Under the pieces are notes generated by a model, which saw only the letters and a program-made list of their open reading frames with translations, did not search any database and was not told the origin of the DNA. The position numbers and the translations under genes were made by a program. A stretch of 12,056 nt of DNA from Archangium sp. (GTDB taxonomy: Bacteria; Myxococcota; Myxococcia; Myxococcales; Myxococcaceae). Shown here piece after piece: positions 1 to 12,056 of this stretch (the stretch's first letter is position 1; each line of letters begins with the position of its first letter). The stretch lies in assembly GCA_031367385.1 (NCBI GenBank), contig JANLPS010000122.1:1-12056 (forward strand), written 5' to 3'.

Positions 1-485
1 GAGGCGAGCGGCACTCGGCAGCTGACCCACGTGTTCGCGCGAACCTTGCCGCCATCGCACGAGGCGCCGAGCGAGACCGCGACGCCGAACTTGCCGCCGC
101 TCTCGGCTTGAACCGCGAGGCTCGCGCCGTCGTACTGCGTACCGCCGTGCACCATCATCACCAGGTGCGTGAAGCCGCTCGTATTGAAGGCGGCGTTGTG
201 AAGGTAAATGCCAGTCCACGGTGAATACCGTACGGCGATCGACTTCGTGCCAGTCGCAATCGGGCTCGTGTTCGAGAGGTTTCGCGTGGCCCATGACCAG
301 TCGGCCCAACCAGACGCGAGGCCATCGGCATAGACCGGAGCGGTCACCGTGCCCACCGCCAGCGCCGACTCGACGCTCGACGATTCATCAACTGCGACAT
401 CACCTGCGACGCCGGTACCGCAAGCGCTTGCTGCGACGACACTCGAAACGATCAACGCACACCAATTCAAAGAGGGTCTCTGCAT
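1..485 (-). CDS. Putative lipoprotein with N-terminal carbohydrate-binding-module-like domain (3' end runs off the window)
   Basis: Manual translation from ATG at 485 is open to the window edge: MQRPSLNWCALIVSSVVAASAC-GTGVAGDVAVDESSSVESALAVGTVTAPVYADGLASGWADWSWATRNLSNTSPIATGTKSIAVRYSPWTGIYLHNAAF...ANTWVSCRVPLA. Hydrophobic signal with ASA-C22 (non-canonical lipobox); GGAG 5 nt upstream of ATG. The VYxDxLxxGWxDWSW...GxxSI...W pattern resembles beta-sandwich CBM-like modules attached to secreted glycoside hydrolases. Not in the ORF track because no stop lies in the window. Confidence 0.8.
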   Translation of the reverse strand, partial: MQRPSLNWCALIVSSVVAASACGTGVAGDVAVDESSSVESALAVGTVTAPVYADGLASGWADWSWATRNLSNTSPIATGTKSIAVRYSPWTGIYLHNAAFNTSGFTHLVMMVHGGTQYDGASLAVQAESGGKFGVAVSLGASCDGGKVRANTWVSCRVPLA

Positions 486-489
486 CACT

Positions 490-519
490 GCTCCGTTGTT
501 TGGGGAAAAACTTCGGAGC
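490..519 (-). promoter_or_regulatory. 5'-leader hairpin containing the Shine-Dalgarno of the 1..485 gene
   Basis: mRNA GCUCCG-AA-GUUU-UUCCCC-AAAC-AA-CGGAGC: 6-bp stem, 2x2 A/A internal loop, 4-bp stem, 6-nt loop; the 3' arm carries GGAG. Confidence 0.4.
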
Positions 520-780
520 TACAACGCTCACGTTTCGATGTGCTCTGTCGACCACCTCTCCCCGAACGAGCCTGAAGACAAATGGACCGCCGCACGCGCA
601 ACAGTGCCGAGATGTGGGTGCCACGATCGCTCTCGCACGATTTTTACAGAGCGCTCAGGTGGGAGGCCGGACGAGACGGAATTTTCGCTGCTCGCGGACG
701 GTGTTTTTTCACAAGCCCCGCACACGCTCGAAGAGGCAGGTGCCTCACGGCGCGTAACGTCATGAATGTGTCAGCGAGCG

Positions 781-1404
781 TTAGCTCTGGAGCAGCGCCT
801 TGCTGCCTTCGAACACGAATTGCACCGCGATCGCAGCGAGAATCAGCCCGAAAATGCGCTCGAGAATCGCGATGCCCGTCAGTCGCAGCACGCGCTTCAC
901 CTGACCTGCACTCCGCAGAACGACGTACGTCAGGCTCAGCGTCAGCACGATCGCCCCAATGACTGGCACGGCTGCCTCGAGCCCGGCGCCATGTTCAGCC
1001 ATCAAGACCATCACCGTGGCGATGGCTCCGGGGCCCGCGAGCAACGGCAGCGCGAGGGGCACGATCGCGATGTCTTCTTGCTCGAGCCCTTCTTGCGTCT
1101 CGGCCGCGCTGGTCTTGGTGGTGGGCCGCTGCGCGCGCAACATGTCGAGCGCGGTGAGCATCAACAACAACCCACCGGCGACGCGAAACGCGGGCAGGGT
1201 GACGCCGAAGACCTTGAAGATGATGCCGCCGAAGAGCGCGAAGAACGAGAGCACTGCGGCGGCGGTGAAGCACGCGCGCAAGGCCATGCCACGGCACTTC
1301 TCGGGCGAATCGCGGCCGGTCATCGCGACGAACACCGGCACCACGCCGATCGGGTCGACGATGAAGAGCACCGCCGGCAGCGCCAAGATGAACGTCGAGA
1401 GCAT
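781..1404 (-). CDS. marC: MarC family inner membrane protein (207 aa)
   Basis: IVDPIGVVPVF, FRVAGGLLL, DIAIVPLALPLLAGPGAIATV and ILERIFGLILAAIAVQF are MarC hallmarks; about six hydrophobic segments. Start moved to ATG 1404, which overlaps the upstream stop as TAATG. Confidence 0.93.
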   Translation of the reverse strand: MLSTFILALPAVLFIVDPIGVVPVFVAMTGRDSPEKCRGMALRACFTAAAVLSFFALFGGIIFKVFGVTLPAFRVAGGLLLMLTALDMLRAQRPTTKTSAAETQEGLEQEDIAIVPLALPLLAGPGAIATVMVLMAEHGAGLEAAVPVIGAIVLTLSLTYVVLRSAGQVKRVLRLTGIAILERIFGLILAAIAVQFVFEGSKALLQS

Positions 1405-2108
1405 TACTTGCCCAGCCGCAGCTTCCACACCACGGTGAAGGCCTCGAGAAAGATTTTGCGGCTCATCTTCGACTGACCGACCCGTCGATCTTCGAACACG
1501 ATCGGTACCTCTTTGACGGTGAAGCCCTTCTGAAGCGTGCGGTAGGTCAGCTCAATCTGAAAGCCGTACCCTGCGCTCTGCACGTGGTCGAGGTCGATGC
1601 CCTCGAGCACCCGGCGGTTGAAGCACTTGAAGCCGCCGGTCAAATCGCGAATGCCGACGCCCAAGATGGTGCGCGCGTAGAGCGAGCCCCCCTGCGAGAT
1701 GAGCTGGCGGGCAACGCCCCAGTTCACGGTGCCTCCTCCGGTGACATAGCGGCTGCCGAGCACCAGGTCGGTGCCGCTGGCGGCCTCGTCGATCAGGGTC
1801 GGCAGGTAGCGCGGGTCGTGGCTGAAGTCGGCGTCCATCTCGATGATGTACTGGTACTTCTTCTCGAGGGCCCACTTGAAGGCGGCCAGATACGCGCGGC
1901 CGAGGCCCTCCTTCTTCTCTCGGTGCAGCACGCGAATTCGGGGCTCTTTGGCGGCGAGCTCGTCGGCCAACTGGCCTGTGCCATCGGGGCTGTTGTCGTC
2001 GACAACGAGCACATCGACCCGGGGGTCGGCGGCGAGGGCCGCGGTGCTGATCGGGCCCAGGTTGTCGCGTTCGTTGTAGGTGGGGATGATGACCAGCGCG
2101 GGGTTCAT
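1404..2108 (-). CDS. Polyprenol monophosphomannose synthase-like glycosyltransferase (GT2, Ppm1/DPM1-like)
   Basis: VIIPTYNERDN, VVDDNSPDGTG, GLGRAY, EMDADFSH (DxD), GSRY, DLTGGFKCF, GYGFQIE, EVPIVFEDRRVGQSKMS motifs; 234 aa with no C-terminal TM. Sugar specificity not provable from sequence. Confidence 0.9.
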   Translation of the reverse strand: MNPALVIIPTYNERDNLGPISTAALAADPRVDVLVVDDNSPDGTGQLADELAAKEPRIRVLHREKKEGLGRAYLAAFKWALEKKYQYIIEMDADFSHDPRYLPTLIDEAASGTDLVLGSRYVTGGGTVNWGVARQLISQGGSLYARTILGVGIRDLTGGFKCFNRRVLEGIDLDHVQSAGYGFQIELTYRTLQKGFTVKEVPIVFEDRRVGQSKMSRKIFLEAFTVVWKLRLGK

Positions 2109-2167
2109 TGGGCGCTGGGCCTTAGCATGGCCAAATGACGGTGTAAGTGGGGTATAGAGCGCAGCTC

Positions 2168-3913
2168 ATGTCTGACTCGCTGGGCCCTTACGAGCTGCAG
2201 AAGCGCATTGGTGCGGGTGGCATGGCCGATGTGTTCTTGGCCACGGGCCCTCAAGGGGTCTGCGTCATCAAGCGGCCGCACGCCCACCTGTGTGCGAACG
2301 CCGAGTTCGTGCGCATGTTTCTCGATGAAGCGGCGATCTTGGCGCAGCTGCACCACCCGAACATCGCGCAGATCTTCGACCTGGGTGCCGCCCAAGGCGC
2401 CTACTACCTGGCGATGGAGTACGTGCCCGGCTTCGACCTGATGACCATCAGCCTCGAGCACGAGCGCCAGGGCGAGATCATGGCGGCCGAGCTGTGTGCG
2501 CGCATCGTGGCTGACGTCGCGGGCGCGCTGCACTACGCGCACGAAGCGAAAGATCGGGCGGGCAACGCGCTGGGCATCATTCACCGCGACGTGAGCCCGC
2601 ACAACATCTTGCTGTCGACCCAGGGGGTCGTGAAGCTGATCGACTTCGGCGTGGCCCGCTCAGCAGGCGGCGTGCACCGAACCCAAGCCGGGCTGGTCAA
2701 AGGCAAGTACGCCTACATGAGCCCGGAGCAGATCACCGGCGGCGAGATCGACCGGCGGGTCGATGTGTATGCGCTGGGGCTGGTGCTGTACGAGCTGCTG
2801 ACCAATTCGCGAGCGATTGCGGGCACGACCGAGATCGAGCAGATCGACGCGGCGCGGGTAGGGCGCATTCGGCCGGTCGAGCAGCTGCGCCCGAACCTGA
2901 CGATGCCGCTGCGGCAGATCATCGGCGGGTGTCTTCACCCCGAGCCAGGCGGGCGCTACGCCACGGCGCTGGCGGTCAAAGAAGATCTCGAGAAGTACCT
3001 CTCATACGAGCGGCATGTGGTCGGTCAAGAAGACCTGCTGCGGTTGTTTCGGGTGGTGGCGGCCGAGAGTGGGCACCTCTCGCCGACCGACCCGAGCTCA
3101 GAGATACCGAATCGGCTCACCGACCAAGAGGCCCCGCTGGTGCTCTCGGGCCCGGAGTCGCTCGACGACGTGGCAGGCGGCCTGTCGCCGACTGCGCCGA
3201 GCCAGCGGGCGACGAACCCTCCCAGGCCGGTTCACGTGCCGCCTGACGTCGGTGCGATCTCGCTCACGCAGCAGATCGCCACGCCCAAATCGAACGCCAA
3301 GTGGGTGATCGTGCTGGTGCTCGTGGTGCTGGGCGCCGGTGGGTTCTCGCTGACGCAGCTTCGCGGGCATGAGGCGGTGGTCGAGACCGTCGATGCGGGT
3401 GAGGCGATGAGGGCGGTGGTGGTGCCCGACGTGCCGGTGTTGATCGCCGACGCTGATGCGGGTGAGGCCATGCCTGAGGTGCCGATGAAGGCGTCGGTGC
3501 TCTTTACTGACATCGACCCCCCATGCGACATCGCGGTCGATGGGCAATCGTATGGGCGGCTGCCTGAGCTCGAGCTGATGCCGGGCAGCCACACCATCGT
3601 GATGTCGAACAAGGCGCTCGGCTTCACGCGCACCATGATGGTCGACTTGAAGCCGGGCGATCGAAAGCCGCTCAAGCTTCGTGCCGGCAAGGGCACGGTT
3701 GAGGTGACCATCGTGCCGTTCGGTGAGCTGAAGGTCGACGGGGCGGTCGTGGCGTCGGGCACCTCGTACAAAGAGCTCTCTTTGTGGGACGGCCGGCACG
3801 TCTTCGAAGCATCGATCGATGACGGGTCAGGGCGCCCGAAGAAAGAGAAGCAGTTCGTCGACCTGAAGCGCGACGAGGTGCAGAAGGTCACGCTCAACTT
3901 GATGAAGCAGTGA
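2168..3913 (+). CDS. Membrane Hanks-type Ser/Thr protein kinase with C-terminal extracytoplasmic PEGA-like repeats
   Basis: IGAGGMADV (Gly loop), VIK, HRDVSPHN, DFG, GKYAYMSPEQ, DVYALG; Pro/Ser-rich linker; TM WVIVLVLVVLGAGGFSL; two PEGA-like units (PPCDIAVDGQSYG...LELMPGSHTIVM; PFGELKVDG...LSLWDGRHVF). ATG 2168 preferred over GTG 2147. Confidence 0.93.
   Translation: MSDSLGPYELQKRIGAGGMADVFLATGPQGVCVIKRPHAHLCANAEFVRMFLDEAAILAQLHHPNIAQIFDLGAAQGAYYLAMEYVPGFDLMTISLEHERQGEIMAAELCARIVADVAGALHYAHEAKDRAGNALGIIHRDVSPHNILLSTQGVVKLIDFGVARSAGGVHRTQAGLVKGKYAYMSPEQITGGEIDRRVDVYALGLVLYELLTNSRAIAGTTEIEQIDAARVGRIRPVEQLRPNLTMPLRQIIGGCLHPEPGGRYATALAVKEDLEKYLSYERHVVGQEDLLRLFRVVAAESGHLSPTDPSSEIPNRLTDQEAPLVLSGPESLDDVAGGLSPTAPSQRATNPPRPVHVPPDVGAISLTQQIATPKSNAKWVIVLVLVVLGAGGFSLTQLRGHEAVVETVDAGEAMRAVVVPDVPVLIADADAGEAMPEVPMKASVLFTDIDPPCDIAVDGQSYGRLPELELMPGSHTIVMSNKALGFTRTMMVDLKPGDRKPLKLRAGKGTVEVTIVPFGELKVDGAVVASGTSYKELSLWDGRHVFEASIDDGSGRPKKEKQFVDLKRDEVQKVTLNLMKQ
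3392..3472 (+). repeat. 18-nt direct repeat (17/18 identical) encoding DAGEAM twice
   Basis: gatgcgggtgaggcgatg at 3392-3409 and gatgcgggtgaggccatg at 3455-3472, 63 nt (21 codons) apart. Confidence 0.8.
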
Positions 3914-5033
3914 GCTTCGCGACGATCTCGGCGGCCCGCTTCGAGGCGCCGGGCGACCCGAGCGCTACGCGCACCTCGTCGAGACCGGTCAGACAGGCTT
4001 CGCGGGCTGGGCCTGCCCACAGGGCCTCGAGCTCTTTGACCACCCGCTCGACGGTCACTTCGCGCTGCAGCAGCTCAGGCACCACCGCGCGCTTGGCGAG
4101 CAGATTCACCAATGAAAAGAAGGGCAACCGCACCATCGCGCGGCCGACGAAGTAGGTCAGCCATGAGACGCGGTAGATGACGACGAGCGGGCGGCGCATG
4201 AGCCCGGCCTCGAGGGTGGCGGTACCAGAGGCGACCAGCGCGACGGTGCTGGCTCCGACGACCTCGGGGGCTCGGCCAGCGACGAGGGTGACCGGCACGT
4301 CGGGTGGAAACGTTGCGCGAATCGCGTCGGCGTCGAGCCCGGGGGCGACCGGCACGACGACCTGGAGCCCCGGGTGCAGGCGACACTGCTCGCGAGAGAC
4401 CTTGGCCATCAGTGGCAGGAGCCTGGCGATCTCCGAGCGGCGGCTCCCCGGGAGCACGGCGAGCACGGGCCGTGACGGGTCGAGGCCCAGCGCGGTTCGA
4501 AAGTGCTCCGGAGGCGCTGGCGGAGGCACCTGATCGAGCACCGGGCTGCCGACGAAGGTGGCGTTGACTCCGCGCTCGCGAAGAAAGGCCTCTTCGAAGG
4601 GCAAGATGCAGAGCAGCTCGTCGGTGCGCTCGGCGATGATCTTGGTGCGGCCCGCGCGCCAGGCCCAGACCATCGGAGCGACGTACCAGACGACGGTGAC
4701 CCCGAGCTTCTTGAGCCGCTTGGCCAGGCGCAAGTTGAAGTCAGGCACGTCGACGAGAATCGCAAGCGATGGTTTTCGTCGTTCGACCTCGGCCACGATG
4801 TCGCGCAGCACCTTGAGAATACGGGGTATTTTCGGCAGCACCTCGCCGATGCCCATCACTGAGATTTCGTGCGCACCGTGCACGAGCTCGACGCCCTGGG
4901 CTTGAAGCTTGGGGCCTCCCATGCCGAAGAAGGTGAGCGTGGGTTGCAGGCGCTTGAGCTCGGCGAGCAGGTCGGCGGCGTGCGCGTCACCCGAGGCTTC
5001 ACCGGCGACGACGAGAACCGAACGCTCAGGCAC
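3894..5033 (-). CDS. lpxB: Lipid-A-disaccharide synthase
   Basis: VAGEASGD, GMGGPKL, SVMGIGEVL, VDVPDFN, YVAPMVWAWR, ILPFE, LPGSRRSEI, ASGTATLE, SLVNLL, PELLQ; 379 aa, GTG start. Confidence 0.96.
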   Translation of the reverse strand: MPERSVLVVAGEASGDAHAADLLAELKRLQPTLTFFGMGGPKLQAQGVELVHGAHEISVMGIGEVLPKIPRILKVLRDIVAEVERRKPSLAILVDVPDFNLRLAKRLKKLGVTVVWYVAPMVWAWRAGRTKIIAERTDELLCILPFEEAFLRERGVNATFVGSPVLDQVPPPAPPEHFRTALGLDPSRPVLAVLPGSRRSEIARLLPLMAKVSREQCRLHPGLQVVVPVAPGLDADAIRATFPPDVPVTLVAGRAPEVVGASTVALVASGTATLEAGLMRRPLVVIYRVSWLTYFVGRAMVRLPFFSLVNLLAKRAVVPELLQREVTVERVVKELEALWAGPAREACLTGLDEVRVALGSPGASKRAAEIVAKLTASSS

Positions 5034-5063
5034 CGCGCGCTCGTACTACAGTCGCCCGGGCCC

Positions 5064-6851
5064 GTGAATGCACCATCGACACTCTGGCAGGCCATGCGTC
5101 GCCTGCTGCTGATGGGGCGACCGCACTGGCCGGTGCTGGGGCTCTCATTCATCTGCATGGTGATGGTTGGGGTGAGCACGGGCGCGTACGCGTGGCTGAT
5201 GGGGCCGGCGCTGCGCTTTTTGCTGACCGGTGGTACCGAGGGCTTGGGCCTGGTCGCAAGAGTGTGGCCCGACATCGCGACCTGGTCTCGGGAGCAGGGG
5301 CTGGTGGCGTTGCCGGTGGTGATCATCGTGATCGGCGCGGTGAAGGCGGTCGGGTATCTCGGCCAATTTTACTTCGTCGGGTTGTTCGGGCAGCTGGTGG
5401 TGGTTGATCTGCGCCGGCAGGTGTTCGTGCGGCTGCTGGGGCTCTCTCCGATGCAGCGTTCGACCCGGCTCAGTGGAGACCTGCTGAGCCGGTTCACTGC
5501 CGACGTGGCCGCGGTCGAGCTCGCCGCGACCTACACGGTGGCCTCGTGGCTGCGCGACACGTTGCAGGTGGCGATTCTGGTGGTGGTGGCCTTCGTGCTG
5601 AGCTGGAAGTTGTCATTGGTGGCGCTGATCGTGGTGCCGATCGCCGTGTGGCCGACCTCGCGGCTGACGCAGGCGCTGTTTCGCCGGGCCCGTTCGAGCC
5701 AATCATCGCTGGGGCTCCTCGCGGGCCAGGTGCAAGAGGGGCTGGGTGCGCTCAAGACGATTCAGGCCTTCAATGCCGAGCACGCGGAGCTGATGCGGTT
5801 CTCGACCAAGGCGCAGTCGGTCGAGCATGCGTTGACCAAGGCTGGGTGGTCTCGCGCGGCGGTGCCCGGCATCATGGAGATTCTCGCCTCGGCGGCGATC
5901 GCGGGCGCGATGGGCTGGGCGTCGGCCAGCCGGGCGGTCGAGCCTGACGCGTTGGTCTCGTTTTTGGGCGCGCTGATCTTGCTCTACCAGCCCGCGAAAG
6001 ACCTCGGCCGGGTGAGCCAGTTCGCGGTGCAGGCCGCGTCGGCGCTCGAGCGGCTCAATGAGATGCTGACGTTGGCTCCAGCGGTGGTCGATTCGCCTGG
6101 GGCGACCGCGATGGCACCCTTGGCGTCGTCGATTTCACTGAAAGACGTGCACTTTTCATGGGGTGAGCGCGCGGCGTTGAATGGCGTGAACCTCGAGCTG
6201 AAGGCCGGGCAGGTGACCGCGCTGGTGGGCGAGAGCGGCAGCGGCAAGAGCACATTGGCCTCGCTGCTGTTGCGCTTCGAGGTGCCGCGGCAGGGCACCC
6301 TCGAGATCGACGGGAGAGACGTAGCGGGGGCGACGGTGGCCAGCGTGCGAGGTCAGTTCGCGCTGGTGACGCAAGACGCGTTGCTGTTCTCGGCGACGGT
6401 GCGAGAGAACGTGCTGGTGGCCAAGCCTTCTGCGACCCAAGCCGAGCTCGAGGCCGCGGCCGCGGTCGCCCATGCGAGTCAGTTCATCGCGGCGCTGCCC
6501 CAGGGGTGGGACACTCCGATTGGCGAGCGCGGGGTGACGCTGTCGGGTGGGCAGAAGCAGCGGTTGTGTCTGGCCCGCGCGGTGTTGGCCCAGGCGCCGG
6601 TGCTGATTCTCGATGAGGCGACGAGCAACCTCGATACCGAGAGCGAGGCAGAGGTGCAATCGGCGCTCGACGACGTGCTGCGTGAGCGCACCGCGCTGAT
6701 GATCGCCCATCGCTTGTCGACGGTGACCCGTGCGAACCTGATCGTGGTGATGGCGGCCGGCAAAGTGGTCGAGCAGGGCACCCACGGTGAGCTGCTCGCG
6801 CGGCGCGGCGCCTACGCGGCCCTGTGGAGCGCCCAACACGCACACGAATGA
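5064..6851 (+). CDS. msbA: MsbA-like ABC exporter (fused TMD-NBD), probable lipid A flippase
   Basis: N-terminal multi-TM domain (GDLLSRFTADV, LLYQPAKDL), Walker A GESGSGKST, Q-loop VTQD, signature LSGGQKQR, Walker B LILDEATSNLD, IAHRLST; adjacent to lpxB. Start set at GTG 5064 (alternative ATG 5094) because the ORF-track start 4869 lies inside lpxB. Confidence 0.85.
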   Translation: MNAPSTLWQAMRRLLLMGRPHWPVLGLSFICMVMVGVSTGAYAWLMGPALRFLLTGGTEGLGLVARVWPDIATWSREQGLVALPVVIIVIGAVKAVGYLGQFYFVGLFGQLVVVDLRRQVFVRLLGLSPMQRSTRLSGDLLSRFTADVAAVELAATYTVASWLRDTLQVAILVVVAFVLSWKLSLVALIVVPIAVWPTSRLTQALFRRARSSQSSLGLLAGQVQEGLGALKTIQAFNAEHAELMRFSTKAQSVEHALTKAGWSRAAVPGIMEILASAAIAGAMGWASASRAVEPDALVSFLGALILLYQPAKDLGRVSQFAVQAASALERLNEMLTLAPAVVDSPGATAMAPLASSISLKDVHFSWGERAALNGVNLELKAGQVTALVGESGSGKSTLASLLLRFEVPRQGTLEIDGRDVAGATVASVRGQFALVTQDALLFSATVRENVLVAKPSATQAELEAAAAVAHASQFIAALPQGWDTPIGERGVTLSGGQKQRLCLARAVLAQAPVLILDEATSNLDTESEAEVQSALDDVLRERTALMIAHRLSTVTRANLIVVMAAGKVVEQGTHGELLARRGAYAALWSAQHAHE

Positions 6852-6870
6852 CGCCCATGCCTGCCGCCGC

Positions 6871-6895
6871 GGCCATCGTGAACGCATGGTCTTTT
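6871..6895 (+). terminator. Possible weak intrinsic terminator after msbA
   Basis: GGCCAT-CG-TGAA-CG-C-ATGGTC followed by TTTT, about 20 nt after the msbA stop, in a 58-bp convergent gap. Confidence 0.35.
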
Positions 6896-6909
6896 GGGCT
6901 CGGCTCGAG

Positions 6910-7566
6910 CTACCTGGTCGATTTCTTCGTGGGGAGCGGCACGAACCCCACCTTCGCGACGCGTGGGTCTTTGGTCGCTGCGTCGAGTGCGCCTGCGATG
7001 TCGGCAGCGTCGAGGTCGACCTGCAGATACATCGGGTTCGCGAAGCGCTTCGTCATGCGCGAGTGCCCGGCGATGAACTCGTCGGCATCGATGCCGCCGT
7101 TCAATGTGAACTGAAGCGCCGGGAGCGAGTAGGTGACTTGACCGCTGACTTGATCACGCGTCACCAGCATCGCCTGCGTGCCTCCGTTGACGCCCACGGT
7201 GTCTTTGGTGCCGAGTACGACATGCGGCCGGCCATCGTGGGTGTAGCGGTGGTCGCCAGTCAGCACGCGAGTCAGCTTCAGGTCAGCCAGCTCGGTTGAC
7301 GACATGGGTTTGATGTTGATGGGGCTTGAAGCCGGCGCACCTGCAGCGACAACCGCCGCAGGTGCAGCCGCTCGAATACCCTCATCTTCAACAACAGGCA
7401 CTCGGGCCGCGGCCACTGGTTGAGCTGCCGCCGGTGCAGCCGCCACCACAGGTTCGGCCCGAACTTCAGTCGCGGCCTGTGTTGACGGCTCGCTCGGCTT
7501 CATCAGCCAGAAACCCAGACCCGCACCGATGGCAATGACTGCAACCGCGACGAGTGCCGTTCTCAT
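6910..7566 (-). CDS. Membrane-anchored protein, putative trans-encoded propeptide-like chaperone/inhibitor of the adjacent S8 protease
   Basis: N-terminal hydrophobic anchor (ALVAVAVIAIGAGLGFWLM), Ala/Pro-rich linker of about 60 aa, C-terminal alternating beta/alpha region (LQFTL-DADEFIAG-YLQVDL-DIAGALDAATKDPRVAKVGFV) and basic tail TKKSTR; ATG overlaps the protease stop (TAATG). The CDS is well supported; the function is inferred. Confidence 0.7.
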   Translation of the reverse strand: MRTALVAVAVIAIGAGLGFWLMKPSEPSTQAATEVRAEPVVAAAPAAAQPVAAARVPVVEDEGIRAAAPAAVVAAGAPASSPINIKPMSSTELADLKLTRVLTGDHRYTHDGRPHVVLGTKDTVGVNGGTQAMLVTRDQVSGQVTYSLPALQFTLNGGIDADEFIAGHSRMTKRFANPMYLQVDLDAADIAGALDAATKDPRVAKVGFVPLPTKKSTR

Positions 7567-9638
7567 TACAGGCTGAACGAGGTCAATGTCGGGGTGAAGT
7601 CGAGACCCTTGCCCGTGTCGCCCGAGCTGTTCGACAAGTCGATGATGCGCACTTCATACGCGCCAGCGAGCTTCTCGCCGTAGAACGCGTTGGTGTGCAT
7701 GCGAAACTGCTGCATGCCCGCGGCAGGAATCTGGTTCGTCTTGCCACCCGCGTAGAACGAGGTGAAGGCCGGCAAGAGAATCGACCGAGTACCGGTCATC
7801 ACGTTGCGAATTTCGAACTGCAACTGACCGGGGTTCACCGCGACTCCGGTGTTGTTCACCACCGTGAGGTCGACGCGAATCGGGCCCGAGGTCGCCGCCG
7901 GGTCAGCAAACGTAGCGGTCGCGGTGTTCACGCCGGCGCCATTGAGTTTGCTGGTCGCAGAAGCGGCCCCCGCTGCCGTGAGGCCGGTCGTACGACGGCC
8001 AGCAGGAGTCGCAAACCCAACCGACATCTTCACCGCCGCATCGGCATCGATGAGCCCAAAGCCGTACCGGTTTTGAAAGTTGAAGCCAGCGCCGTTGGTG
8101 ATCCACGGCAGGTCCAACGCCCAGGCGACGGCTGCGCCAGTTGCGGTGAACGTGGGCGCGTTGGCGGTCGTATTCGAATAGTCGGCGTCAACTTTGCGCG
8201 CGGTCTTGGCCAAGATGAACCCAACGTCTTGCCAGGTCAGTGCAGGGTTCGCTTCGAGCATCAATGCAGCGATGCCTGACACTGACGGAGTCGCCGCCGA
8301 GGTGCCGTTGAAGCGCCCGGTGTAGTTGCAGTTCGGGTCGATGGTGCCCGCGCCGAACGTGTCGGCAACCAACGCGCTGATGCCTGCTCCAAGCTCGGTC
8401 ATGAGCGCCGCTTTGTTCGCAAGGTTGTTGGTGCCGCTGTCGCAGCCGGTGTTGTCGATGGTGACGATGGCCGCCTCAGTCGTACCGTATTCGCCGCCGA
8501 AACCGGTGACCCACGAAGCCGATGAGGCGCTCGAGTAAGACGACGCCTTGCCGGTGTTGTGAATCGAGGCCACTTGGTAGAAGTACGGCTTGTTATTTGG
8601 GTCTTGATTCGCGCTACCGCAAGTGATCGAGGCCGCGTTCGCGATCGTGCCGCCGAGCAACGCAGCATCAGCCGCGAGCACTTCAGCGCAGGTCACCTGG
8701 TTGGTGGTGTTGTTGGGCAGCGCGCCTTTCTGCGCTTGAAACTCGTTACCCGTCGCTTGAAAGTAGATGGCGCCCTTGCCGCCGCGCAACGTCTTCGTGC
8801 CCTCTTTCGCAGCCAAGGTTTGCTCATCGGTGTCGCTCACGGCAGTCGGTGCGCCGTAGTCTGCACCTGCGCTGTAGTTGAAGACGCCAACGCCATCTGC
8901 GCGCGCGCCGAACGTCGCCACGACGGCTTCGGTGCCAGCGAGCGTCTTTGCGCCGAACGAAAGGTACGTCATCGCCGCATCAGAGGTGCCCGCCATCTTG
9001 GTCACGCCGACGGTGGGGTAGCCGACCACTGAAGCCAAGGGCCCCGTGCCGCGCGAGCCCTTCCCGTTCCACCCGCGGCTGGCTGCGACGCCGCCAACGT
9101 TGGTGCCGTGGTCGCCGCTCGCTTGCGCGGCTGCAGGGCTCGGGTCATCAGAGTTGTTCGCGAAGTTGAACGATTTGCCGGCGACGACATTGTCTTTCAA
9201 ATCTTCGTGGCCAATCTCCAAGGCGCTGTCGACGATGGCGATGGTGACGCCGAGACCAGTGCACCCCTTGCCTGCCTGGTGCGCTGCGTCGACCCGGGCA
9301 TCGATGCCAGCTTGTGCGCCCGCGTTGCCGACGGCCGAGACGACTTGCGCCGAGCCGGTGTTCTTGATCTGCCACGAGTTGACCGCGAGCGGGTCGTCAG
9401 CGCCGACCGTGTTGGCCATCTTGCCGTCGGCGCACGTGACGGTGAGGGCGCCACCGTCGACGTGGTGCAGGTCACCTGCGTCGGTGATGGTCGAGCCTGA
9501 GTCGGTCTGCCCTCCAGTCATGCCACTGTCGGTGGCAGCGCCTGCGTCGGCGTTGGTATCACCGCCACCGCATGCACCAAGAGTACAGACAGCAATCGCA
9601 GCCAAGCTCACGCGGAGCGCAGAGAATCGAAAAGCCAT
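7566..9638 (-). CDS. S8 family kexin-like serine protease lipoprotein with C-terminal P-domain-like region
   Basis: Lipobox LGA-C23; DPL..SWQIKNTG; triad D137 (AIVDSA), H177 (DHGTNVGG), S447 (NGTSAATP); oxyanion N298 (ATGNE); EANPALTWQDV, YGFGLIDA; P-domain-like GTRSILL...TNAFYGE...YEVRIID. Confidence 0.92.
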   Translation of the reverse strand: MAFRFSALRVSLAAIAVCTLGACGGGDTNADAGAATDSGMTGGQTDSGSTITDAGDLHHVDGGALTVTCADGKMANTVGADDPLAVNSWQIKNTGSAQVVSAVGNAGAQAGIDARVDAAHQAGKGCTGLGVTIAIVDSALEIGHEDLKDNVVAGKSFNFANNSDDPSPAAAQASGDHGTNVGGVAASRGWNGKGSRGTGPLASVVGYPTVGVTKMAGTSDAAMTYLSFGAKTLAGTEAVVATFGARADGVGVFNYSAGADYGAPTAVSDTDEQTLAAKEGTKTLRGGKGAIYFQATGNEFQAQKGALPNNTTNQVTCAEVLAADAALLGGTIANAASITCGSANQDPNNKPYFYQVASIHNTGKASSYSSASSASWVTGFGGEYGTTEAAIVTIDNTGCDSGTNNLANKAALMTELGAGISALVADTFGAGTIDPNCNYTGRFNGTSAATPSVSGIAALMLEANPALTWQDVGFILAKTARKVDADYSNTTANAPTFTATGAAVAWALDLPWITNGAGFNFQNRYGFGLIDADAAVKMSVGFATPAGRRTTGLTAAGAASATSKLNGAGVNTATATFADPAATSGPIRVDLTVVNNTGVAVNPGQLQFEIRNVMTGTRSILLPAFTSFYAGGKTNQIPAAGMQQFRMHTNAFYGEKLAGAYEVRIIDLSNSSGDTGKGLDFTPTLTSFSL

Positions 9639-9868
9639 GGGTATTTTGTTTCAGTCTGAACGACGGGTTGAGTGTTCGGGTCGGGGCTCGGGTTCGAAGG
9701 CCACCAAACCGTGGGGCAACCTTCGCACAGGTTTTCAAATGGTCGACTGAAATCAGAAAATTCAAAATCGGGAGATGGGCCGACCGTGAGCTGTGGCTTC
9801 GCGCACCAGCAGTGAGTGTGCACCATCATGAGGCGCAGCCAAACACGCACACGAGTGACGTGAAGGCG

Positions 9869-9905
9869 CGGGTGAGCGGCTCAAACGCAAAGGCGCCGCT
9901 CCCCG
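9869..9905 (-). terminator. GC-rich hairpin just downstream of the 9921..11540 gene (terminator or 3'-stabilising stem)
   Basis: cggg(t)gagcggc 9869-9880 pairs with gccgctc-cccg 9895-9905 (11 bp, one bulge, 14-nt loop), starting 16 nt after the stop; no U-tract. Confidence 0.4.
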
Positions 9906-9920
9906 GGCCCGACCTGAGGC

Positions 9921-11540
9921 TTACTGGTCGTCGCTGACCATGACGGTGCTGTCGACCGTGCCGTCGCCATCGGCATCGACGCCGACGCTCATCGGCATGC
10001 CGTTGCCGCTCCACTGGGCGTAGTCGAACGAGACGACCGCGGTGGCCGCGATCGAGTTGCCGGCGTGGGTGAACACGCTGGTGGCCGCGGTGTCGCGGCG
10101 CTCGACGCGAACGTCGTAGCTCGCCGTGCCGTCGTTCGCTTTGACCGACACCTTGAGCTTGCCGTGCGCCGCGTCGAGCTCGAGCTTCACTTCGACGCCT
10201 CCGGTCTCGGCCGCCGACTTCACCTCGAACAGATAGTCGGCGCCGTCAAACGACACACCGAGGTCAACCCGAGGCGTCTCGCTGGCGGTGGTCTTGTATG
10301 AAACCGACTCGGTGCCTGCCGAGAACGAAATGGTGTCTTTCTGAAGCGGGTGCACCAGCACGTCTTCGACTGAGAAGGCATACCCCGGAGCGGTGAGCGT
10401 CACGCTCGAAGTACCGGCGGTGGTCAGGGCCGTGCCGTCGAGCGTGATCGTCAACGGCACGTTCAACGGCAACCGGTAGGTCGGGTCGGCGACGCTGTTG
10501 TAGGTCAAGGGCGAGCGCTTGATCGGGCTGGTCGTCGCCTGGGGAATGGTGTTCACGAAGGCGCCTGCGACGAAGCCGAGCTGGTGGTTGGCGTTGTCGG
10601 TGATCAGCACGTGCGCATCGCCGTTCAACGACACTTCGCGAAAGCTGACCGCGGAGCCTTTGACGCTCTTGCCGTCGGCCGCCACGGTGCCGCAGGTGGG
10701 GCACGTCTGCTGAACCATTCGCTGGCTGTTCGGGGTGAGGGTCAAGGTGCCGGTGGTCGCGTCGCCGTCATAGGTGGCGCCCGGCTCGTTGGGGTTCGTG
10801 GCGGCAAAGTATTTCCACGTGTTCGCGGTCGGGTCGATCTCGAACTCCCGAATCTCGTTGGGGAAGTTGTTCTCGTAGACCTTGATGAATTGCTTGCCGC
10901 CGCGCTCCTCAGTGGAGATGGGCGTCACGGCGTGGCCGCCGCTCATGTCGCGCTTGTACAGGCCGATCGACCAGACTTCGCCGCCCGACGCGACCATCGT
11001 CGCGATTCGCGAGACGACCTCGGTGGGAGCAATCTTGCTCGCGCCCTTGGTCTCGGAGCTCTGGGTGGGGGCCGCCGCCTGCGTGGCCCACCAGTAAGCG
11101 ATCTCTCGCTGCAGCTTGGTGTTGTTGGCCAGCGTCAGCTGAAAGGCGGTCTCCGCGCCGAAGTCACTCGCCTTGAGGGTGTGGGCCGCGAACATACCGG
11201 CCAACACCGCCATGCCTTCGCAGTGCCCGCCGTTCATCGCGCCGTTGGTGGCCTCCATCCATTTCTGGGCGGCCGGGGTGAGCGCACACGAATCGGTGGT
11301 GAGGCTGCCGGCGCAGGCCGTGTCGCCGAACATGCGGCGCACCTCGACCTCGGTCAGATTCGTGATGCCGGGGGTGTTGGTGTAATTCTCGAAAGCGAAG
11401 CTGTGGGTCTTGTGCACGAAGACAAAGCCGCCGTCGACGCCGCCGGTGATGACCCCACCGTCGGTGGTCGTGGTGACAGGGCCACCGGGGCACGCAGCGA
11501 GATTAAGACCAACCACTCCAGCAACAAAGGATTTTTTCAT
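9921..11540 (-). CDS. Uncharacterised lipoprotein, putative papain/transglutaminase-like cysteine hydrolase domain plus beta-rich C-terminal region
   Basis: MKK + hydrophobic stretch + LAA-C17; FAFENY; GGHC107EGMA; GGH203AVTP; KVYE223NNFP; CPTC; beta-strand-rich C-half; terminal DADGDGTVD motif; strong GC3 bias in this frame. Confidence 0.8.
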   Translation of the reverse strand: MKKSFVAGVVGLNLAACPGGPVTTTTDGGVITGGVDGGFVFVHKTHSFAFENYTNTPGITNLTEVEVRRMFGDTACAGSLTTDSCALTPAAQKWMEATNGAMNGGHCEGMAVLAGMFAAHTLKASDFGAETAFQLTLANNTKLQREIAYWWATQAAAPTQSSETKGASKIAPTEVVSRIATMVASGGEVWSIGLYKRDMSGGHAVTPISTEERGGKQFIKVYENNFPNEIREFEIDPTANTWKYFAATNPNEPGATYDGDATTGTLTLTPNSQRMVQQTCPTCGTVAADGKSVKGSAVSFREVSLNGDAHVLITDNANHQLGFVAGAFVNTIPQATTSPIKRSPLTYNSVADPTYRLPLNVPLTITLDGTALTTAGTSSVTLTAPGYAFSVEDVLVHPLQKDTISFSAGTESVSYKTTASETPRVDLGVSFDGADYLFEVKSAAETGGVEVKLELDAAHGKLKVSVKANDGTASYDVRVERRDTAATSVFTHAGNSIAATAVVSFDYAQWSGNGMPMSVGVDADGDGTVDSTVMVSDDQ

Positions 11541-11613
11541 TCTCCGCGGTTATCAGCAGAGAGAGGTGACGACCACCCATTTCGGCAGGTCACGAACGCC
11601 CCCGTTGTGTGTT

Positions 11614-11631
11614 GGGCGCTTGGTCGCGCCC
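11614..11631 (-). terminator. Short GC hairpin downstream of pth
   Basis: gggcgc-ttggtc-gcgccc (6-bp stem, 6-nt loop) about 28 nt after the pth stop; no U-tract. Confidence 0.25.
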
Positions 11632-11659
11632 GTCGCAGCTGCAACTGCAAAGAATGCGT

Positions 11660-12056
11660 TTACTTGCGATTGAACTTGTTCATCGCGACCTGCATGCCCA
11701 GCTGCGCCCACCACTCACAGCCCTCCATCGCCTTGCCGATGAACTCAGGCATCGCCGCGTTCTCTTCTTTCGAAAAGTCACCCAGCACATGGCCGACGAC
11801 CCGCTCTTTCGCGTTCGGCCCATCGGGCTTGCCGATGCCAAATCGCAAGCGGCCGTAGCTCTCTTCGCCCCACGACTCTCGAATCGAGTTGAGGCCGTTG
11901 TGCCCACCGGTACCGCCGCCGGCCTTGAGCGCCAGCTTGCCGAACGGCAAATCAAGCTCGTCGTGCACCACCAGCACCTCGGCCGCGGGTACCTTGTAGA
12001 ACCTCGCCGCCCCGCCGAGTGACTGCCCCGACAAGTTCATGAACGTCATCGGCTTG
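11660..12056 (-). CDS. pth: Aminoacyl-tRNA (peptidyl-tRNA) hydrolase, 5' end outside window
   Basis: [52 protein letters not shown]; the frame continues to the window edge, so ATG 12049 is internal. Confidence 0.97.

Follow-up and report, generated by a model that had tools for sequence, protein, structure and literature searches.

A kexin-like lipobox protease without a cis propeptide and its downstream partner, a predicted trans-acting propeptide, in the myxobacterium Archangium

A 12,056-nucleotide stretch of DNA from Archangium sp. (GenBank assembly GCA_031367385.1, contig JANLPS010000122.1, positions 1 to 12,056; hereafter the window) contains two adjacent genes coding for a kexin-like S8 protease that lacks a propeptide of its own and, directly downstream, a 218-residue partner protein (Table 1). 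The best explanation of this pair, to which we give a probability of about 0.7, is that the partner is propeptide-like, likely serves as dedicated folding chaperone and temporary inhibitor of the protease, and is probably anchored in the inner membrane. The protease has an intact catalytic triad and no room for a cis propeptide, the pairing of the genes is fixed and the partner has a conserved basic C-terminus. In structural models, the last ~70 residues of the partner are predicted to form a prodomain fold with the tail in the protease cleft and a hairpin gripping the protease P-domain. An initial annotation of the window had proposed a two-gene system of the type formed by the Aeromonas protease ASP and its partner ORF2. 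This reading is upheld by ASP being the closest solved relative, the missing cis propeptide, the prodomain-like fold and ORF2 sequence link of the partner, the co-occurrence of the genes and the predicted tail-in-cleft complex.

The protease and its missing cis propeptide

Both open reading frames (ORFs) lie where the initial annotation had placed them, with C23 in the lipobox L-G-A-C and a DPL motif beginning at residue 82 of the protease. The protein recovers Peptidase_S8 (PF00082) in Pfam above the cut-off (E 3.5e-22), and its best sequence match in the PDB is Aeromonas ASP (3hjr, E 1e-45; Kex2 and furin 1e-16), which is also its nearest solved relative by profile search and by fold (Foldseek top matches 3wqb_A and 3hjr). 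The triad D137/H177/S447 and the oxyanion residue N298 are invariant in a 39-row alignment, and the ASP disulfide pair C301-C326 aligns with C399-C437. The Pfam search of the protease recovered no P-domain family; the P-domain is supported by the ASP alignment through residue 672 and by the top Foldseek rows, namely ASP, furin and Kex2. That alignment ends at residue 558 of the 600 in ASP, leaving 18 residues in the window protease as against 42 in ASP, and because of this shorter C-terminus the occluding segment with Arg566 of ASP likely has no counterpart here.

The protease likely cleaves after Arg or Lys at P1, and the acidic residues D260 and D346 lie near the predicted S1 site. Where the partner ends in Lys or Arg, 32 of 36 proteases have D260 and 35 of 36 have Asp or Glu at position 346, a pattern that follows the clade. 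In one locus (L017) the partner ends in His and the protease has Gly at the D260 position; in two others (L013 and L078) the partner tails end in Arg and the proteases lack D260. We considered co-evolution of the partner tail with the S1 site and dropped it, as it is confounded with clade.

Thirteen Gly, nine Asp, nine Thr and nine Ala make up 40 of the 58 residues between C23 and the DPL motif. The initial annotation had described this spacer as mostly low-complexity; the true linker covers only residues ~24-65, and residues ~66-81 form a T-C-x-x-G arm conserved among relatives. AlphaFold leaves residues 18-65 without secondary structure, at a predicted local distance difference test score (pLDDT) below 50. 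From a homologue search that returned 285 proteins at E<=1e-30, the best 120 were examined, of which 38 were dropped because the N-terminus was short or not recognised. Of the 82 kept, 80 have a lipobox with Gly directly after it. The distance from this Cys to the DP motif is 14-80 residues in 73 of the 80 and 203-531 in the other seven; Pfam detects no propeptide family in these seven long-spacer relatives or in three more long-spacer proteins. Tether length thus differs widely among the relatives, and a spacer varying freely down to 14 residues would therefore not be a folded prodomain, in agreement with the initial annotation, to which no folded prodomain was apparent. The relatives P0016, P0075, P0076, P0082, P0086, P0096 and P0098 carry 200-530 extra residues with unassigned domains between lipobox and enzyme.

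No fused partner-protease form was found among 8000 longer candidates, which is weak evidence. Two sets of apparent fusions were rejected: of the 150 partner-profile matches listed, three are long, and in these only short repeated stretches match, and a 1122-residue open frame in genome G163 contains a separate 205-residue partner.

Conservation of the gene pair

We examined 153 loci, 74 from genomes and 79 from metagenomes; L030 and L095 were not parsed, and the short fragments L145 and L154 were placed by hand in the distant group. Close loci are those with at least 42% identity; four of them, with fewer than 700 bases downstream, were not counted. Some of the loci are near-duplicates. A non-circular partner profile, seeded with the window partner and three close homologues, matched 43 of the 4544 ORFs in the 153 loci, all on the protease strand and none opposite. 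By this neighbourhood survey, 39 of the 41 close loci counted have a partner homologue downstream of their protease, bearing out the co-occurrence anticipated in the initial annotation. A wider profile finds a partner in both misses (L087 and L088), and L030 also has one; the count of 41/41 that this profile yields is circular, the profile having been built from the same loci, and was discarded in favour of 39/41. In the distant group the partner lies downstream on the same strand in 51 of 96 loci, on the opposite strand in three more (L104, L105 and L119, convergent) and upstream in two (L038 and L099).

The arrangement also varies in copy number. Two tandem proteases are followed by one downstream partner in L005-L007, and L077 likewise has tandem protease paralogues with a single downstream partner. 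In two of the nearest relatives, L003 and L028, one protease is followed by two tandem partners, one long and of the anchored type, the other short and of the signal-peptide type; the short copy of L003 extends 8 residues beyond the usual tail end. The next gene in both loci codes for similar proteins of ~390 residues, which resemble M48 peptidases. One other family of the order (L156-L166 and L172-L174) has several distant pairs per genome with signal-peptide-type partners, and several distant partners of the Bdellovibrionota type have long linkers behind the hydrophobic helix. In marine SAR86-type and related loci (L040, L053, L054, L118-L127, L139 and L140) the S8 proteases are large and the partners have Glu or Asp as the last residue of the tail, which hints at P1 specificities of another kind.

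The partner: a predicted prodomain-like fold and a distant link to ORF2

The TAATG in which the protease stop and the partner start overlap, reported in the initial annotation, is present at 7568-7564. That annotation had further described a C-terminal beta/alpha region of ~90 residues with a basic tail. The tail does end in Arg, but the folded core is larger, ~134 residues (85-218; mean pLDDT 92.8 in a model made with a 51-row alignment), and mostly beta with short helices: its first ~60 residues form a beta-hairpin unit and its last ~70 (148-217) are prodomain-like. The latter region superimposes on the subtilisin BPN' prodomain (3bgo_P, Z 7.8; 3cnq_P, Z 8.0; root-mean-square deviation 2.1 over 65 aligned residues), and it also matches the stand-alone inhibitor POIA1 (Z 7.5) and the PC1/3 prodomain, this set lying within Z 7.4-8.0, as well as the PAM protease entry (chain B). 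The tail length is fixed in the 51-row alignment, and the last residue is Lys or Arg in 43 of 46 close versus 13 of 64 distant representatives (14 of 60 close and 15 of 79 distant proteins were skipped in the counts of partner ends and helices, for length or want of a hydrophobic run).

The link to ORF2 at the sequence level is indirect. The partner profile matches 228 representatives at E<=0.001, and 7 of 31 scanned more distant relatives pass the cut-off of the Pfam family ORF_2_N (PF18492); HH-align of the partner profile with one such member gives a probability of 95.6. With a widened profile, ORF2 (2mk4, 3wqb_B) ranks first in the PDB, weakly, at E 0.02. In the ESM atlas the partner lies near clusters of the ORF_2_N and Fervidolysin_NPro-like type (0.92; families assigned on fewer than half of the members). 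Judged by these profile links, the partner is a distant ORF2 homologue outside PF18492.

Weak NCBIfam matches to its N-terminal helix and linker, far below the cut-off and including BamI at E 0.006, were not used.

A predicted protease-partner complex, and what speaks against it

We modelled protease residues 64-690 with partner residues 85-218, alongside three controls. The interface score ipSAE is 0.93 for the pair and 0.00 for the best control, the runs agree in 100% of the contacts, and the partner pLDDT is at least 91. By way of calibration, 116 of 157 solved complexes attain the ipSAE mark, as do 2 of 215 mismatched pairs; these counts are approximate as own alignments were used. In the model, partner residues 210-218 contact protease D137, H177, 256-261, A295, N298 and 445-447, and K215 pairs with 257-259, a register in which R218 would occupy P1. 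The conserved partner hairpin at 138-143 touches residues 637-642 of the P-domain. The docking of the partner in the active-site cleft, postulated in the initial annotation, is thus predicted by the model, with the proviso that the model resembles solved complexes.

Several results weigh against our interpretation. The complex score may reflect memory of the solved ASP-ORF2 or protease-prodomain complexes. MESD, RRM and ACT domains tie with the prodomains within 1 Z (Z<8.1), because of which the partner fold alone is not decisive, and ORF2 chains are not among the matches listed in three fold searches with the partner. Foldseek with the partner gives no row at E<=0.001. The partner matches no ORF2 or propeptide family in Pfam, giving no match to PF18492 at its gathering cut-off of 29.2, and that family is matched at any level by only 5 of 51 aligned partners. 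In the PDB, neither a direct sequence search with the partner nor the close-clade partner profile finds a match. That the protease would depend on the partner for folding is argued by analogy with ASP.

The RRM/ACT/MESD ties and the want of a direct Pfam match would suit a partner that is either a substrate of the protease or a membrane protein with a ferredoxin-like (RRM/ACT) fold and no relation to propeptides, with the linker or general chaperones folding the enzyme. This we consider highly improbable, given the indirect sequence link to ORF2, a tail of constant length that ends in a basic residue, the 39/41 co-occurrence and a complex score far above the controls.

A second alternative accepts the docking and limits its meaning: the partner would be solely an inhibitor or safety cap, comparable to I9/POIA1, SUB1-ProM or PopD, on a protease that folds by itself. 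POIA1 matches the partner as well as prodomains do, the docking model fits inhibition and chaperoning alike, and a stand-alone propeptide-like inhibitor of SUB1 has been reported (PMC6993865). Moreover, no downstream partner is detected in 45 of the 96 distant loci, five of these having it upstream or on the other strand. Yet the closest studied system requires its partner for maturation (PMC5638518, PMC13492141), the window protease has no other propeptide, and PopC differs in having no signal peptide (PMC6434023). We therefore rate pure inhibition as distinctly improbable and retain the view that the partner is both chaperone and inhibitor.

Probable membrane anchoring and lipidation

Judging from its lipobox, the protease would be lipidated at C23; lipoproteins are exported by Sec and processed by Lgt and LspA. 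For the partner, an uncleaved N-terminal helix serving as anchor appears quite probable, provided that the rest of the interpretation holds. The relevant calls come from our own sequence heuristic, applied to 46 close and 64 distant partners, whose rows are related, so that the counts are not independent. The helix ends in Trp in 31 of 46 close versus 7 of 64 distant partners and is capped by Trp or Tyr in 38 versus 14, while a strict A-x-A motif is found in 9 of 46 versus 26 of 64.

On the opposing side, the two groups are not told apart by a loose signal-peptidase motif (27 of 46 close, 47 of 64 distant), and the partner could be cleaved at T29-Q30-A31. Short, apparently cleavable partners also accompany the lipobox proteases of L022, L033, L084 and L087, which suggests that anchoring is optional in the clade. 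These observations fit an alternative in which the same trans-acting propeptide has a cleaved signal peptide, with a candidate site after A31/A32, and is a soluble periplasmic ORF2-like chaperone with a disordered N-terminal extension. Close and distant partners also have similar hydrophobic runs, both in length (mean 17.8 and 15.7 residues) and in Kyte-Doolittle hydrophobicity (2.62 and 2.52). Against this stand the frequent Trp/Tyr cap and the fewer strict A-x-A motifs of close partners, as well as the long Ala/Pro linker, which suits a tether as in LipH (PMC13381987). The side-by-side presence of long and short partners in L003 and L028 also suggests that the two forms differ. We regard the soluble version as unlikely and keep to an anchored partner.

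Proposed mechanism

We propose that Sec carries both proteins across the inner membrane, whereupon the protease would be lipidated at C23 and the partner would retain its N-terminal helix, placing both on flexible tethers of ~40-60 residues at the periplasmic face. There the partner would guide the folding of the protease and block its active site, and would then be released or degraded; ASP likewise degrades ORF2. Once active, the enzyme, with a likely Arg/Lys P1 preference, would remain in the envelope on its lipid anchor. The overlap of the two genes in TAATG points to coupled synthesis of both proteins in roughly equal amounts, and this speaks against a chaperone that is purely catalytic.

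A bolder scheme is that the propeptide has become a reusable, membrane-fixed foldase, a steric chaperone like Lif derived from a subtilase prodomain, which would fold and release many lipid-anchored proteases, even paralogues as in L005-L007. In it the second, soluble copy of L003 and L028 would be an inhibitor or escort, and the self-sufficient 3-kb cassette would cross phyla. We offer it tentatively, as the less probable course.

Host, clade and likely origin as a cassette

The host genome has 11 MYXO-CTERM matches over the cut-off, compared with none in 14 control genomes, in support of the probable myxobacterial host of the initial annotation. The system itself is no myxobacterial speciality: many other bacteria also have this pair of genes, and the protease clade is mostly betaproteobacterial. 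In a quick tree of 46 rows (midpoint root, with Shimodaira-Hasegawa-like approximate likelihood-ratio (SH-aLRT) supports only and without a one-clade test), the protease falls among Ideonella/Burkholderiales sequences (SH-aLRT 98) inside a 38-row clade (100), whose named rows are betaproteobacterial in 26 of 28 cases and Desulfuromonadales/Geobacteraceae in two. Closer to the host, the C-terminal 377 residues of the protease have no match at E<=1e-25 in the 145 same-family genomes searched, and in ten other genomes of the order the only relatives are at 34-42%. A single-protein search of 300 genomes of the order with the partner core found none, and with the partner profile 8 of 400 other genomes of the phylum gave matches, all of them distant or weak.

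The pair is bracketed by 23-bp direct repeats, 21/23 identical, that occur in the genome in only these two copies at <=3 mismatches; 100 shuffles reached at most 17/23. Weak similarity extends ~70 bp further upstream of the repeats, the right copy looking like a decayed msbA 3' end. All five relatives with readable DNA past msbA lack a protease or partner match in the stretch examined. GC content at third codon positions is lowish (protease 0.78, partner 0.70, with 371 and 162 of 2537 long ORFs at or below these values). One contig of sequencing run X1 covers 5500-11000 and one of run X2 covers 6220-9717; the junctions are hence not peculiar to this assembly, although both runs are possible sources of this DNA and are not independent. 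No allele joining the repeats without the cassette is among the matches listed in three sequencing runs, and the cassette contains no recombinase gene. A search for sigma-70 promoters gave no match, and terminator-like sites are at chance level; no RNA data set is among the listed carriers of the sequence. The two genes were likely gained laterally as one ~3-kb cassette from a betaproteobacterium-type source.

Among 27 close loci tested for bracketing repeats, L010 has perfect repeats of 21 bp, L087 and L088 have 212-bp repeats at 92%, and 23 have none; a repeat in L077 was rejected as a bracket, as it reflects the tandem paralogues. An ORF ~3 kb upstream of the L010 cassette is presumably integrase-like.

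The flanking block at 781-6851 codes for a membrane protein, a glycosyltransferase, a Ser/Thr kinase, lpxB and an msbA-like ABC transporter and is largely syntenic in same-family genomes. On the other side, outside the cassette, P0003 (9921-11540, minus strand) is a probable lipoprotein of 539 residues that matches no Pfam or NCBIfam family over the cut-off. Its atlas clusters are unnamed and come from Actinomycetota and Chloroflexota, and an orthologue (75%) lies in a different gene context in a same-genus genome. We take its Cys, His and acidic motifs to recall a papain-like triad.

Table 1. Location of the features discussed (window coordinates unless a locus is named)
Feature	Position	Strand	Basis or remark
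Kexin-like S8 protease gene, P0001, 690 residues	7566..9638	minus	without cis propeptide; Pfam, PDB, Foldseek
Lipoprotein signal peptide, residues 1-23, lipobox Cys23 then Gly-Gly	9570..9638	minus	sequence; lipidation inferred
Disordered Gly/Asp/Thr/Ala tether, residues 24-65	9444..9569	minus	AlphaFold pLDDT <50, no secondary structure
Catalytic domain, residues ~66-545, approximate bounds	8004..9443	minus	D137, H177, N298, S447
P-domain, residues ~546-690	7569..8003	minus	ASP alignment; all-beta in predicted model
TAATG stop/start overlap, protease stop and partner start	7564..7568	minus	sequence; translational coupling inferred
Partner gene, P0002, 218 residues, stand-alone propeptide-like protein	6910..7566	minus	
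Hydrophobic stretch without charged residues (3-22), closing with F-W-L-M; probable signal anchor, uncleaved	7501..7560	minus	own heuristic
Ala/Pro/Val-rich linker, residues 23-86	7309..7500	minus	33% A, 14% P, 14% V
Beta-hairpin unit, residues ~87-147, conserved R-D-x-x-S-G-Q hairpin	7126..7308	minus	predicted clamp on P-domain 637-642
Prodomain/I9-like alpha-beta domain, residues ~148-209	6940..7125	minus	VIA-align Z 7.4-8.0
C-terminal tail, residues 210-218, ends in Arg	6913..6939	minus	predicted in active-site cleft
Left 23-bp direct repeat	6831..6853	plus	overlaps stop codon of msbA-like gene
Right 23-bp direct repeat, 21/23 identical	9838..9860	plus	upstream of protease gene; repeat spacing 3007 bp
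Direct repeats of L010	3983-4003 and 6734-6754		repeat contains protease start codon
Direct repeats of L087	3341-3552 and 6594-6805		
Tandem partner genes	L003:2082-3381 and L028:3802-4960		

Comparison with known systems

ORF2 is a small soluble periplasmic protein. In the literature searched, ASP/ORF2 (PDB 3HJR, 3WQB, 2MK4; PF18492) is the one structurally studied bacterial example of a trans-encoded propeptide. The maturation of ASP needs the downstream ORF2, whose terminal Lys, in a Gln-Pro-Lys ending, meets the catalytic Ser336 of ASP and which ASP then degrades; asp/orf2 operons are named for Aeromonas, Vibrio, Shewanella, Chromobacterium as well as Pseudoalteromonas (PMC5638518). The window pair shares with it a protease made of catalytic and P-domains without a propeptide, a small gene directly downstream and a partner ending in a basic residue that is predicted at the active site. 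It differs in that the protease, unlike the secreted ASP, has a lipobox and tether, and in that the partner, at 218 residues with a probable anchor and a 64-residue linker, exceeds the solved ORF2 constructs (133-148 residues) and misses PF18492; the hosts of the window type, too, lie outside the five named genera, which are gammaproteobacterial or Chromobacterium. In the largely open-access literature searched, ASP/ORF2 is nowhere described in a lipoprotein or anchored form; the 2015 ASP-ORF2 structure paper may list more homologues.

With the cis propeptides of subtilisin, kexin and furin, and with the I9 inhibitor POIA1, the partner shares the predicted fold of residues 148-217 and the predicted tail-in-cleft binding. 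It departs from them in being a separate downstream gene product, not N-terminal in cis as true propeptides are, with its own export signal and a predicted extra P-domain-binding beta-hairpin; it also has no scissile bond to the enzyme as cis propeptides do. The PopC/PopD pair of Myxococcus xanthus, set alongside by description only, is likewise a myxobacterial subtilase held by a dedicated partner, but PopC lacks a signal peptide and secretion is blocked by PopD (PMC6434023).

In layout, the pair resembles Lif/LipH and Acinetobacter CpaB, which are likewise encoded by adjacent genes and have an N-terminal helix, an unstructured Pro/Ala-rich linker and a periplasmic chaperone domain (PMC13381987, PMC4713064); LipH is kept from being co-secreted (PMC13381987). 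The folds differ, LipH being helical and CpaB annotated as SRPBCC-like, and the window partner has neither a Lif-type helical domain nor such a Pfam match. The clients differ as well, those of Lif, LipH and CpaB being soluble type II secretion substrates whereas the window protease has a lipobox and would be anchored.

The window pair belongs to a separate clade, with a partner missed by Pfam and NCBIfam and both halves apparently membrane-tethered. Hundreds of hypothetical proteins gain a likely role from this assignment, and the proteases concerned would likely need their downstream gene for expression. The natural variants, with partners anchored, soluble or both, and with one partner for two proteases, could distinguish a catalytic from a once-consumed propeptide. 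We conclude that the pair probably works like ASP/ORF2, the new elements being the lipobox protease, the probably anchored partner and the host range, and that the clade appears to join the propeptide mechanism to the anchored-chaperone layout of Lif and CpaB.

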